Source: Candidatus Hermodarchaeota archaeon (GTDB taxonomy: Archaea > Asgardarchaeota > Heimdallarchaeia > Hodarchaeales > Hodarchaeaceae). From it: a DNA stretch of 32,000 bases. How positions within the stretch are numbered: the stretch's first letter is position 1; every line of letters starts with the position of its first letter. This document shows positions 10,296 to 28,889 of this stretch, piece after piece. A program made the position numbers and the translations under genes. The stretch is taken from assembly GCA_048886185.1 (NCBI GenBank), contig JBHLKY010000006.1:90001-122000 (forward strand), read 5' to 3'. The notes beneath the pieces were generated by a model, which saw only the letters and a list, made by a program, of their open reading frames with translations, did not search any database and was not told where the DNA came from.

Positions 10296-10462
10296 GCCTC
10301 CCTTAATAGCACAAAATGGGTAGGTTTTCCTTTGAAGAATAAAATTTGAATCTATTTCTAATAATAGAAAATATGAAGAGTGTTATTGGGAGATAGTGCT
10401 GTCTAATAGCATTTTCCCAATGAGAATACCGATTTCCTCCCAATGAAACCTTGCTAGTCTCT

Positions 10463-10675
10463 TCACGCAATTAATCTTCGGGAAACATAATCAGAAAGCT
10501 TTTTGTTTCTAGGGATTCGGGTTACAAATGCATCCATACCACATTCATTACACTTCAAACGAAGTGCACCATGATTGACAATAGTATTTATGGTATGAGT
10601 ATGACACCAAGGGCATAATAGCTCTAGTTCGGCCCGATGTTGAAGATCTACATTCTCTTCGATTTCGATTGTCAT
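10463..10675 (-). CDS. Small C4 zinc-ribbon protein (70 aa), possibly Elf1-like
   Basis: CPWC-x17-CNEC; GGAGG Shine-Dalgarno 6 nt before ATG. Confidence 0.75.
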   Translation of the reverse strand: MTIEIEENVDLQHRAELELLCPWCHTHTINTIVNHGALRLKCNECGMDAFVTRIPRNKKLSDYVSRRLIA

Positions 10676-10683
10676 TTTTTTAC

Positions 10684-10817
10684 CTCCAATTCTTTTATTA
10701 GAGTGGAAAACAGCCCTATATGGGTTCGTTTTCCGATACAGCTAAGCTGTATCACACCGAGTTGATTTCAGTGGCCTATTTCTATAGAGAGATGACATCT
10801 AGAAAATCTAGACGGCA
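10684..10817 (-). ncRNA. Candidate structured 5' leader (six tandem hairpins, the last one sequestering the SD)
   Basis: Inverted repeats at 10793-10817, 10776-10787, 10755-10773, 10735-10753, 10705-10734 and 10684-10703; G-U pairs favour the minus strand; TTTTTATA box at 10848-10841. Confidence 0.55.
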
Positions 10818-11462
10818 GATAATTTTTTTTCCTCAGGGTCTATAAAAATGTTATGATTTATAACGGTTTTTGTAATTTTATACAAAGTTACAATTATTTT
10901 TTCATTCAGAAATCTTTCCTCTAGCATCTCTATTCTTCGGGATAAAAGTTAAAGAATTCAGATTTTACCCGAATTTATAATTATTTTGAGGATACCATTA
11001 AATCTTATAATTTTTTGCATCTTTCGAGTCCCCAAGTAGCTAGTGTCCAGTTTGATATATTTAAGATTATAACCGCAAAATATTTTTTCTGAAATAACTT
11101 AATATCAAAAATTTATTTAAATAATCTTTTTAAACTTATTTATTGTGTTGGAGTTAAGGAAAAAATAAAAGATTTTTTGGAAGATATTCATTCAAACTCT
11201 TTGTCAATCAGAATCGAACTATTCTGCCTTTATATAGATTTTAATGAAACAGGATTGAATGATTGATAATAAATTCGCGCTTCAAAATGAATGTTTTAAT
11301 TGACTTAAAATGATTTATTGATAATCAAAAATTATCAAGTAAATACAAAGAACAATAATAGAGAATAGAAAGAAATGGATTTGGTACAATTTTCACATTA
11401 TAACACAGAAGAAATTCTTTCAAGAGCCAGATAGACATAAGTTTTGGAATGATGTTCTTATC

Positions 11463-12626
11463 ATGGTAATTCTTTCTAGAATTTTTAGCAAATATGCGTT
11501 AATTGGAGAAAACCTCACATTAAAAGAGAATGTATTAATAAAGATCAATAACAAAGGTAAGATATCAAGGGTGGAATGCGATACACCACCTAAAAAAATT
11601 ATCTCGGAGTGTTCATTCTCTCATCATTTACTTCTGCCTAAATTTATCAATTCTCATACTCATCTAGGAGATTCCATTTTAAAGGATCAGGCATATCAGT
11701 TGTCACTCAATGAGGCTGTTGGAGTAAATGGGTATAAATATCAAACTATAGGGCATAATAGAATCCAACGTATTGCTGCGATGAGATCAGCTATAATAGA
11801 AATGATTGAGAATGGTACTGCAGCTTGTTGTGATTTCAGGGAAGGAGGATTAAATGGAATAAATGAACTCCGAGAAGCAGCAAAAAACTTACCAATTGAT
11901 CTTCACATACTTGGCCGTCAGCACACAAAGGCTGATTTAAACGATGTTATTTCACAATGTAACGGTTTGGGATTAGCAACACCTCTATTATTCTCTCGAA
12001 AAGAATTAGAGATAATTCGGTTACAAACCTCTTCTTCAAATGTTTTAGTCGCAACACACATTGGAGAAAATCATCAGATAATTCAGGAATCTAAAGAAAA
12101 ATTTGGATTTTCTGATTTACAAGTTGCTCTTAAATATCTTAATTCAGATATTTTGATCCATTTAACCGTAACTGATGAACATGAGCTCGGTGAAATACCT
12201 CAATCTAAATTTATCGTTTTTTGCCCTCGTTCCAATGCTTATTTTGGATTAGGATTTCCTCCTGTTAATTATTTTTTAGATAAACACCACTTGCTTGGAT
12301 TAGGAACAGATAATGTAATGGTTAACACCCCAAATGTATTAGAAGAATTAAGATGGCTTGTACTGCGGTTGAAGGAACAAGGGATCTCAATAGAACCGAT
12401 ACAAGCGTTACAATTTATTACAACAAATCCTTCTAAACCTTTAAAACTGCTCACAGGCTGTATCCAAGTAGGTTACTGGGCAGATTTGTTAGCTATTAAT
12501 CTTCAAAGCAATAGAACCTTATTCGGGGCAGATCCTGTCTTAACACTACTCTTTCGTTGTCAGCTTCCAGAAGATATTACTCTTAATCTTTTTCACGGAG
12601 AAGAAGTTACAGATGAGCTTGTTTAG
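11463..12626 (+). CDS. Metal-dependent amidohydrolase/deaminase (SsnA/MTA-SAH deaminase superfamily)
   Basis: PKFINSHTHLGD (HxH), THIGE (HxxE), IHL, CPRSN, GLGTDN, IQVGYWADL. Confidence 0.88.
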   Translation: MVILSRIFSKYALIGENLTLKENVLIKINNKGKISRVECDTPPKKIISECSFSHHLLLPKFINSHTHLGDSILKDQAYQLSLNEAVGVNGYKYQTIGHNRIQRIAAMRSAIIEMIENGTAACCDFREGGLNGINELREAAKNLPIDLHILGRQHTKADLNDVISQCNGLGLATPLLFSRKELEIIRLQTSSSNVLVATHIGENHQIIQESKEKFGFSDLQVALKYLNSDILIHLTVTDEHELGEIPQSKFIVFCPRSNAYFGLGFPPVNYFLDKHHLLGLGTDNVMVNTPNVLEELRWLVLRLKEQGISIEPIQALQFITTNPSKPLKLLTGCIQVGYWADLLAINLQSNRTLFGADPVLTLLFRCQLPEDITLNLFHGEEVTDELV

Positions 12627-13326
12627 CCTTCCTTCAATTCGACCTTATGTAATTCTATCTGCCGCCATCAGTCTTGATGGACACATCGCTACACTCAATG
12701 GAGACTCACTTCTATCAAATAGAGAAGATTGGATACGAGTTCACCATTTAAGAGCGGACTCCGACGCAATAATGATTGGCAGTGGAACTGTTCGAGCTGA
12801 TGATTCAAAATTGACTGTTAACGAAGATTTAATTGAGGTAAAAAATATAAACCATCCCATTCGGATTGTTGTCAGCTCTGATGGCATGATCCCTCTAAAT
12901 TCGAGGATTATTATTCATCGTCCAGACATTCCAACTCTTATTGCTACAACTTCACGATGTTCATTGATACAAACGGAGAAACTGGAAAAAAGAGGTTGTA
13001 AAATCATTAAATGTGGAAATGGCCCCTTAGTCGACCTAAGTAAGCTCCTATTAGTCTTAAAGACGGATTTTCAAGTTAATAAATTAATGCTTGAAGGAGG
13101 AAGCCAATTAAATGGGGCCATGTTAAATCTCCAGTTTATTGACGAAATTCAATTAGCAATTGCCCCTGTTATCTGCGGTCAAGGAATCCCACTTTTCAAG
13201 CTTTCTAAAGCTTTTTACATGTTTTCGGAGTCACCTTTTTTTGATATAAAATCATACAATCAAATTGGTGACATGATTTGGCTTAAAATGTTAATTAATT
13301 ATCAATCACGAGAGATTGCATTATAA
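12613..13326 (+). CDS. 2,5-diamino-6-ribosylamino-4(3H)-pyrimidinone 5'-phosphate reductase (RibD C-terminal/Rib7/ArfC type)
   Basis: RPYVILSAAISLDGHIA, VHHLRADSDAIMIGSGTVRADDSKL, LMLEGGSQLN, IAPVICG; no N-terminal deaminase domain; 14-nt overlap with the upstream gene. Confidence 0.88.
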   Translation: MSLFSLPSIRPYVILSAAISLDGHIATLNGDSLLSNREDWIRVHHLRADSDAIMIGSGTVRADDSKLTVNEDLIEVKNINHPIRIVVSSDGMIPLNSRIIIHRPDIPTLIATTSRCSLIQTEKLEKRGCKIIKCGNGPLVDLSKLLLVLKTDFQVNKLMLEGGSQLNGAMLNLQFIDEIQLAIAPVICGQGIPLFKLSKAFYMFSESPFFDIKSYNQIGDMIWLKMLINYQSREIAL

Positions 13327-28406: not shown

Positions 28407-28889
28407 TTAACCAATCCGAACTTCGACAATTTGTTGTTTTGTTCGTAAATTTGAGGATAAAAAACGGCCTTCAACTGAAGATAGCTCCATCATAAGTGGA
28501 CTATTCATCCAAGCACATCGAATTGAAGCTCCCTCAAAAACTCGTTCAGTAATCTCCGGGTTCCCTCTTACTATAACTGGTTCTTGAAATTCATATCCAT
28601 CATTACTTTTTTTTATTTGTAGAAAGAAAACTGAAAGCGCGATCCCTCGTTTCATCATGCTAGATACATTCTCTTCTATTTCAATTGCTTGATTTTCTAC
28701 ATTCCAAGAAATACGAGCACGAATACGTCTTGGCTCAGGTTGTTCAATATTGATAAAACGCATACCAGTAATAAAGAATCCCGTCCTATTCCTACCATCT
28801 TCATCTTTCAATCCTTTTACATTGAGATGACTTTCAATGTCAATTATGGGGTATATTTCGATCTTCTTTACTTCATCGATCCGAGTCAT
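28407..28889 (-). CDS. Hypothetical beta-rich protein (160 aa)
   Basis: ATG start, protein-like composition, fills the gap between co-oriented genes; no family recognised. Confidence 0.7.
   Translation of the reverse strand: MTRIDEVKKIEIYPIIDIESHLNVKGLKDEDGRNRTGFFITGMRFINIEQPEPRRIRARISWNVENQAIEIEENVSSMMKRGIALSVFFLQIKKSNDGYEFQEPVIVRGNPEITERVFEGASIRCAWMNSPLMMELSSVEGRFLSSNLRTKQQIVEVRIG

Follow-up and report, generated by a model that had tools for sequence, protein, structure and literature searches.

Bacterial ribosomal proteins such as L20 and S15 are served by mRNA leaders that act as autogenous translational operators, and classical riboswitch aptamers combine conserved junctions and loops with stems of variable sequence. 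To our knowledge, very few cis-regulatory RNAs have been recognized in archaea and none that is specific to Asgard archaea, for which we know of essentially no post-transcriptional control. The Hodarchaeales are the Asgard group placed nearest to eukaryotes. Among the archaeal systems that have been described, L7Ae represses its own translation via a structured 5' UTR, namely a k-turn leader (PMC5539422, PMC6298567), and long structured 5' UTRs of Methanolobus psychrophilus have predicted roles in masking of the ribosome-binding site (RBS) or in stabilisation (PMC5378194).

The leader described here is found in a window of 32,000 nucleotides, the whole stretch of DNA that was analysed, from a MAG of the Hodarchaeales (Heimdall-group Asgard), where six hairpins fill a leader of about 145 nt (minus strand, 10820-10676) ahead of a small zinc-ribbon gene. 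Like the L7Ae and ribosomal protein operators, it is a single-copy structured 5' UTR element beside the RBS that is conserved together with its gene, and the small zinc-ribbon product, of a type that often contacts nucleic acids, makes a plausible effector. Unlike the L7Ae leader, it has no k-turn on inspection, since no 3-nt bulge followed by tandem G-A pairs is present and the internal loop of its fifth hairpin (GAA/CU, AAG/A and similar among relatives) is followed by C-G and not G-A pairs; and unlike the ribosomal protein regulators, the product is near neutral and its RNA binding is putative. With the methanogen leaders it shares an archaeal 5' UTR of more than 100 nt containing a stem-loop able to mask the RBS, but those leaders were defined by mapping of transcription start sites (TSS) in one species rather than by cross-species covariation, and we know of no sequence or structural relation between them and the Hodarchaeales leader.

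Two bacterial comparisons are also relevant. Thermometers of the ROSE and fourU types likewise consist of several hairpins in a 5' UTR, the last of which pairs the Shine-Dalgarno (SD) sequence; the present leader differs from them in that it matches no such family, its SD helix is short and not universal, no melting is predicted between 15 and 50 C, the upstream stems are conserved in sequence, and the host is archaeal. Translational riboswitches resemble it in being conserved, covarying leaders that lie directly upstream of the SD in one copy per genome. Unlike them, it combines fixed stems with free loops, has linkers of nearly zero length, is confined to one genus, and offers no predicted alternative fold with covariation support.

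The features of the locus, all on the minus strand, are as follows.

10841-10848, minus strand: TATA box TTTTTATA, preceded by a BRE-like conserved AACA/ATAACA.
10817-10820, minus strand: predicted TSS at A10820 (AUCUGCC), about 21-24 nt past the TATA box.
10796-10814, minus strand: P1, a hairpin of 8 bp close to the 5' end, CGUCUAGA/UCUAGAUG, from folding.
10775-10788, minus strand: P2, a small 5-bp hairpin, UCUAU/AUAGG, from folding.
10755-10773, minus strand: P3, a hairpin of 6 bp (CACUGA/UCGGUG) whose loop varies, from folding and compensatory changes.
10735-10753, minus strand: P4, a perfect 8-bp helix, GAUACAGC/GCUGUAUC, with a variable 3-nt loop, from folding and compensatory changes.
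10705-10734, minus strand: P5, an outer stem of 7 bp (GGAAAAC/GUUUUCC) and an inner stem of 3 bp (CCC/GGG) separated by an A-rich internal loop and capped by a loop, from folding and compensatory changes.
10684-10703, minus strand: P6, a C/U-rich anti-SD tract CUCUAAU paired over 7 bp with AUUGGAG, covering the GGAG of GGAGG, from folding.
10683-10687, minus strand: Shine-Dalgarno sequence GGAGG, 7 nt ahead of the start codon, from sequence.
10675, minus strand: ATG of the zinc-ribbon gene, from sequence.
10463-10675, minus strand: gene for a 70-aa CPxC...CxxC zinc-ribbon protein of an orphan family.

All six hairpins had been proposed in an earlier sequence-only reading of this DNA, and all six were recovered in place on the minus strand. 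When positions 10820-10673 were folded, the minimum free energy (MFE) was -46.9 kcal/mol, compared to -27.1 +/- 3.4 kcal/mol in 200 dinucleotide shuffles (z = -5.8), none of which equalled or bettered it. The centroid structure is identical to the MFE structure, and the predicted ensemble shows a single fold in which P3 and P4 are separated by 1 nt and P4 and P5 by none. The same reading had remarked that the leader is richer in GC than its flank, as it is (0.40 versus 0.19-0.28 in the upstream spacer), and had taken the mRNA strand from G-U pairs, an argument that holds modestly, with 40 G-U cells versus 18 A-C cells across relatives. The sense strand in those relatives has 92.4% of its cells paired, compared to 88.9% for the antisense strand, and both measures agree with the mRNA orientation.

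The TATA box is kept in all 19 of 19 orthologous loci, at 172-175 nt (about 173) from the start codon, the distance being 160 nt in three loci that lack P2. TATA-to-TSS spacing in archaea is well established, and because of this spacing and the fixed distance of the promoter the TSS can be placed near 10820, from which we infer a 5' UTR of about 145 nt. An amidohydrolase gene diverges upstream and is syntenic in at least 10 loci, and the 560-nt spacer between this gene and the promoter cannot be aligned between species; thus conservation of the DNA begins abruptly at the promoter.

The sequence-only reading had proposed conservation and covariation as a check on the structure, and both are present, the covariation being in P3, P4 and P5. 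The tested structure comprised P3-P6, and the alignment was built with MAFFT and made no use of structural information. On that alignment 89.5% of cells are paired, versus 40-48% when the 3' partners are slid by 1-3 columns; double changes are seen at seven pairs, and the covariation score exceeds that of every one of 500 column shuffles. The alignment fitted to the model, with 23 distinct sequences that all come from one genus, gives the 92.4% quoted above, a figure that leans towards the structure by construction. In P3, where 77-90% of cells are paired, C-G is replaced by U-A in six sequences and G-C by A-U in one. P4 is paired in 98-99% of cells and shows double changes at three pairs, for example C-G to U-A in eight sequences, and P5 is paired in 96-99% of cells, with C-G to U-A in three sequences, G-C to A-U at the closing pair, and a compensatory C-G to U-A change in its inner stem. 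Nine diverse orthologous leaders fold into the same array, with z-scores from -3.4 to -6.7.

The 5' part of the leader is maintained differently. A 5' hairpin corresponding to P1 is found in nearly all orthologs, with a sequence that cannot be aligned between subclades, and the 5' segment folded alone (the P1 region) has a median z of -3.5. Many relatives have P2 as UCC-N5-GGA; three genomes have lost it, and one subclade has P2 nested with P1.

The stems of the central hairpins, in contrast to their loops, hardly vary. Among 18 orthologs, mean pairwise identity is 0.88 in the stems of P3 (3' strand), P4 and P5 and 0.39 in the loops of P3-P5, as compared to 0.90 at codon positions 1 and 2 of the very conserved zinc-ribbon protein and 0.53 at third codon positions. 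Stem identity close to that of codon positions 1 and 2, together with loops that are free to change, indicates that the sequence of the helices in P3-P5 is selected beyond the requirement for pairing. The only invariant unpaired bases are the 1-nt linker of P3 and P4 and one A of the P5 internal loop; a junction GUGU is also invariant. As judged from these sequences, fixed stems with free loops would fit recognition of a helical platform, or strands that are held by a second pairing. Sampling is at the level of a genus and the near-invariance of the stems could partly reflect short evolutionary time; nevertheless, the loops and third codon positions have diverged much further than the stems.

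The leader is restricted to one genus and to one gene. Searches with DNA found gene and leader in 20 of 21 congeneric genomes, and an RNA model (R1) extending from P3 to the start codon gave one strong match each, of 86-114 bits, in 19 of the 21; of the two congeners that the model missed, one has Ns in place of the leader sequence. The RNA model was also run on 62 genomes from six other families of the class and did not find the leader there, the sole match being one of 27 bits attributable to chance. Wherever it occurs, the leader is a single match per genome and always precedes the zinc-ribbon gene. A degenerate core pattern run over metagenome, species-representative and genome collections added four more sequences of the same kind, from the same genus; three matches to the pattern in unrelated bacteria were dropped, as they fail the RNA model. 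Three weak model matches (L035, L061 and L062) were inspected and found to be chance matches driven by the SD and ATG.

No known family accounts for the element. Neither the window nor any of 12 orthologous loci has an Rfam 15 match at the gathering score. Relaxing the search of the window to E<=10 brings up no credible family over 10684-10820 (minus strand), where rli24 scores best, with 14.6 bits versus a cut-off of 100; the earlier statement that the leader matches no riboswitch consensus agrees with the Rfam search. No tRNA or tmRNA is present in the window, this assembly yielded neither LSU nor SSU rRNA, and the closed congener G010 gave no match to the LSU model. A MITE or REP-like repeat was considered, as it had been in the sequence-only reading, and is rejected because the leader is single copy in its own 4.8-Mb assembly by both BLAST and a covariance model; the next-best genome match (E = 0.04, 23 bits) lies inside unrelated sequence. 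Literature searches found no description of the leader. The best reading is thus of a new, genus-specific cis-acting 5' UTR element belonging to the general kind of structured 5' UTR control elements. This much of what the sequence-only reading had proposed stands: a new conserved and structured archaeal leader that has no Rfam counterpart, is tied to the zinc-ribbon gene, and lies on the mRNA strand.

The gene that follows the leader encodes a zinc ribbon with the spacing CPxC-x17-CxxC, whose N-terminus is acidic (net -5) and whose C-terminal half is basic (net +5); the family as a whole has a pI of 6-8.9. Identity among orthologs is 74-97%, and their start codon, which may be ATG, GTG or TTG, keeps its position. 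This orphan family has 1-4 paralogs per genome, and two further paralogs in this genome, with 68-72% identity, have no leader. Upstream of paralogs and distant homologs there is no match to the model, and these regions fold no better than shuffles (z from -1.0 to +1.5). A profile search of 1.84 billion representatives returned 16 clusters only. Pfam and PDB searches by sequence yield marginal matches (E of 0.0005-1), each of them to a ribosomal protein with a zinc ribbon (bL33, eL42 or eS27), and the bL33 match is in an order that looks permuted. In Foldseek, a structure model of moderate confidence (pLDDT 62, core 70-80) matches zinc ribbons of a generic kind, namely Elf1, aIF2-beta, eL43 and RPP21, at E of 0.019 at best, and the ESM Atlas adds nothing beyond marginal matches or generic zinc ribbons. 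The genome has its genuine eL42, eS27 and Elf1 genes at other loci, and the JGI label 'ribosomal protein L44E' is unsupported, as the true eL42 is on C14. The product is an orphan whose modelled fold is one in which contacts with nucleic acids are frequent. A RibD_C reductase gene adjoins the zinc-ribbon gene divergently, both here and at one homolog detected by the profile search only, and this distant homolog beside RibD_C has no structured leader. A hairpin in the 3' UTR has z = -1.95.

Metatranscriptomes provide some indication of how the gene is expressed. Logan contigs of relatives, at about 80-92% identity, come from four metatranscriptome libraries of three studies and cover the CDS, and those of three libraries extend past the SD and all of P5, P4 and P3 to reach diverged sequence further upstream; the depth of one contig is 140, in a library of 60 Mb. 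RNA of this genome itself appears in none of the runs. These contigs are unstranded, carry no 5' ends, may represent DNA, and are uninformative for the parts that they do not cover; as such, they are consistent with a leadered and well-expressed mRNA. Regardless of how the leader acts, we regard it as very probable that selection maintains it as a cis-acting element in the 5' UTR of the zinc-ribbon mRNA.

How the leader might act on translation is a separate question, for which occlusion of the SD had been the first proposal. One part of that proposal stands, namely that the GGAG of the SD is paired by the 7-bp P6 in this genome; the pairing, however, is ordinary for the genome, and P6 shows no covariation. 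P6 comprises 7 bp here, but in most relatives it has 3-4 bp (CUCC, CCUC or UCCU with GGAG) in shifting registers. It is paired in 74-80% of cells with zero double changes, the latter being expected since the SD cannot vary; the sequence GGAGGTWAA is invariant in all orthologs. The C-rich anti-SD tract is missing in 2 of the 23 variants (G006 and L098), and the MFE structure of some orthologs has the SD paired not within P6 but with a UCC close to the 5' end.

In silico, GGAGG is about 80% paired in all orthologs, with an unpaired probability of 0.19-0.21. The background for this number comes from every ORF-like start of the 4.8-Mb genome with GGAGG at a distance of 5-9 nt, 192 in all, each folded over 145+30 nt as for the leader; their median SD unpaired probability is 0.24 and 41% of them are at or below 0.21, in a control that is crude, as the starts are unverified genes whose upstream 145 nt may be untranscribed. 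Similarly, opening of the five SD bases is predicted to cost a median of 4.4 kcal/mol across the orthologs, with a range of 2.4-6.8, and of 3.9 kcal/mol in this same crude background (interquartile range 2.2-5.6), where the leader of this genome (G000) falls at the 82nd percentile. The folding models thus show that predicted SD pairing by itself is no signal in this 33%-GC genome. Because SD pairing is at background level and the anti-SD tract is missing in two variants, occlusion may not be the mechanism, and as an account of the leader it is, on these models, weakly supported. More generally, in-silico pairing of GGAGG is the norm in AT-rich genomes and is not, alone, evidence of occlusion.

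Other pairings and signals within the leader were also considered. The invariant UUUCC of the 3' strand of P5 could pair with GGAGG instead, in which case GGAAAAC is an SD look-alike. A systematic scan for conserved alternative helices recovered only this UUUCC/GGAGG pairing and UCGG duplicates, all composed of invariant bases, and a UUUCC/GGAGG switch is neither supported nor refuted, since none of its bases varies. Pairing of the 3' strand of P3 with the tract after P5 was rejected on inspection, since it shows no covariation and would set A28 variants opposite C, and a conserved uORF was rejected as well, the AUG in P1 of this genome not being conserved.

Of the mechanisms that we have weighed, the one we favour, tentatively and with some doubt, is that the leader is a protein-bound operator of translation, possibly an autogenous one. 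In this account, the conserved TATA promoter would produce a monocistronic zinc-ribbon mRNA led by the 5' UTR of about 145 nt, in which P1 and P2 would be required as shapes only, probably for 5'-end protection and folding, and P3-P4-P5 would form a sequence-specific docking platform. A protein, the simplest candidate being the gene's own zinc-ribbon product, would bind the P3-P5 platform and, from its position beside the RBS, would hold CUCC and/or the UUUCC of P5 against GGAGG; alternatively, the bound protein might sterically block the 30S subunit. In either case the outcome would be negative feedback on translation. We infer that the element regulates, that its effector is a protein, and that this protein is the product of the gene.

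The operator reading is favoured because a single copy is tied strictly to one gene, stem sequences are conserved, one stable fold is predicted, and the element adjoins the RBS. The single predicted fold suits a static operator better than a bistable switch, and the motif, as seen with autogenous operators, is confined to the mRNA of its candidate regulator and co-occurs with the gene. GGAGG at this spacing is rare in the genome, with only the 192 ORF-like starts counted above, and the zinc-ribbon mRNA would be one of few that depend strongly on the SD. Against the operator, the product is near neutral, with a pI unlike that of a basic ribosomal protein, and may not bind RNA, an activity that is putative; moreover, the similarities of its sequence are marginal, those of its modelled structure are to generic zinc ribbons, and the genuine eL42, eS27 and Elf1 genes are found at other loci. 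SD pairing at background level and the two variants that have no anti-SD tract also weigh against this reading.

A constitutive leader that senses nothing, and that guards a short, highly expressed mRNA from 5'-3' exonucleases and fixes the rate of translation from a rare full GGAGG, is the alternative that survives best, although we consider it unlikely. The retention of P1 near the 5' end as a shape only, the single stable predicted fold with no bistability, SD pairing that is ordinary for the genome, and the depth of 140 reached by a relative's transcript contig in a small metatranscriptome are all in keeping with such a role. Stabilisation, however, needs shape only, and yet the P3-P5 stems are held nearly as closely as codon positions 1 and 2 of the protein whereas P1 and the loops drift, and the paralogs do without any such leader.

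A riboswitch, in which P3-P5 would be an aptamer for a small molecule or ion whose binding alters access to the SD, appears quite improbable, and the suggestion of a ligand-responsive element in the sequence-only reading fares poorly because near-invariant stems and free loops argue against a classical ligand pocket. Some features do point in this direction: a conserved, covarying, single-copy 5' UTR directly before the SD with no Rfam match, the invariant A in the internal loop of P5 and the invariant GUGU junction, and the possibility that the UUUCC of P5 pairs with GGAGG rather than with GGAAAAC. Guesses at the ligand are contextual, with Zn2+ suggested by the product and a flavin-pathway metabolite by RibD_C, the divergent neighbour here and at the homolog known from the profile search only. 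Yet the pattern of conservation is the reverse of that of known aptamers, with loops that are free (0.39) and stems that are fixed (0.88), and linkers of 0-1 nt leave scant space for a pocket. Predicted ensembles show no bistability, the alternative pairing is formed from invariant bases only and so has no covariation support, the leader serves one gene in one genus, and the distant homolog beside RibD_C has no structured leader.

Very improbable, in our estimate, is an RNA thermometer following ROSE or fourU logic, in which a last, weak SD hairpin melts with heat and the upstream hairpins are scaffold. A leader of several hairpins with the SD in its last and weakest helix has the right outline, and P6 of relatives contains G-U pairs and short stems. 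The ROSE-like thermometer of the sequence-only reading nonetheless gains no support: partition-function calculations place the SD unpaired probability at about 0.2 at 15, 25, 37 and 50 C in nearly all orthologs, and there is no match to ROSE; no other thermometer family overlaps the leader either, and a match to the LasI thermometer lies elsewhere, at 10921-11005, with 18.9 bits versus a cut-off of 76. Loss of the anti-SD tract in two of the variants also counts against melting of P6, and a thermometer would leave the sequence conservation of P3-P5 unexplained.

Least probable is an independent or processed small RNA, with an array that ends or is cleaved before the SD and a gene expressed by read-through or from a second start, for although the array is very rich in structure and has a conserved promoter of its own, and the U4 run of P5 with the A-rich tract that follows could favour termination or cleavage, there is no oligo-T of at least 5 and no terminator-like site (in a sigma-70/terminator scan that is uninformative for an archaeon) and no conserved TATA between P5 and the SD, the leader and the CDS are continuous in RNA contigs, variable loops leave no conserved single-stranded seed, and linkage to the zinc-ribbon gene is strict and of fixed spacing.

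Returning to the operator reading and to what the leader may mean, the locus offers a clean and testable candidate, with a defined promoter, about 145 nt of leader, helices supported by covariation and a single target gene, and its unusual signature of fixed stems and free loops points to sequence-specific recognition. That its three central hairpins form an operator or aptamer through which the orphan zinc-ribbon protein, Zn2+ or a metabolite feeds back on translation, and that they represent the first regulatory RNA class specific to Hodarchaeales, is a serious possibility, if somewhat short of probable. The leader would mark the orphan zinc-ribbon protein as tightly controlled, which is itself a reason to study the protein, and, if the operator or aptamer reading is true, it would provide a handle on post-transcriptional control in Asgard archaea.

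The zinc-ribbon protein encoded at the leader locus is one of an orphan family that accounts for only 16 clusters in a set of 1.84 billion representative proteins. Within the source genus, each genome carries 1-4 paralogs. The members in the source genome, G000, and two further features are as follows.

Window 10463-10675, minus strand: zinc-ribbon family gene at the leader locus
G000:C12:93164-93370: zinc-ribbon family member
G000:C10:168349-168543: zinc-ribbon family member
G000:C14:55955-56200: true eL42 gene
Window 10350-10465, minus strand: 3' UTR of the zinc-ribbon gene

The top PDB sequence matches of the zinc-ribbon protein are to bL33, but these are marginal (E ~0.01) and have the two knuckles in swapped order. 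The JGI name for the protein, 'ribosomal protein L44E', looks wrong, because the true eL42 gene lies elsewhere in G000. Searches with archaeal LSU and SSU rRNA models found no match in the whole of G000, nor did the LSU model in the whole genome of G010, a single-contig congener; the rRNA operons seem either to be missing from the assemblies or masked, or to have diverged too far to pass the initial search filter. The N-terminus of the zinc-ribbon protein also contains one copy of a 23-nt direct repeat encoding IEIEENV (window 10649-10671 versus 28665-28687, 21/23 identical), the second copy of which is inside an unrelated 160-aa ORF (28407-28889) that matches no Pfam family; this repeat may be chance.

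Full-strength Shine-Dalgarno sites appear rare in G000, because only 192 ORF-like starts (at least 150 codons open) in its 4.8 Mb possess a full GGAGG 5-9 nt upstream. By default, these 192 sites are predicted in silico to be largely paired (median unpaired probability 0.24).

Downstream of the zinc-ribbon gene, the 3' UTR contains a possible long-range helix, UGAAGAG/CUCUUCA, around the hairpin AUUGGGA/UCCCAAU, followed by a U-rich tract; the z score of the fold is only -1.95, and in close relatives DNA conservation reaches ~75-90 nt beyond the stop codon. Upstream of the promoter, the spacer between the two divergent genes (window 10905-11462, ~560 nt) is non-coding and of very low GC (0.19-0.28), with no ORF of at least 60 aa and no DNA conservation among congeneric species, except in one genome to ~10981.

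Beyond this spacer, a RibD_C-type reductase is divergent to the zinc-ribbon gene, with an amidohydrolase in between (window 11463-13326, plus strand). A homolog retrieved by profile search alone, P0031, is found on metagenome contigs and likewise has a divergent RibD_C neighbour (L127:292-1413, a metagenome-contig locus). Although P0031 lacks a structured leader, the recurrence of this neighbour at both loci suggests that a conserved link ties the zinc-ribbon family to a riboflavin-type pyrimidine reductase locus.
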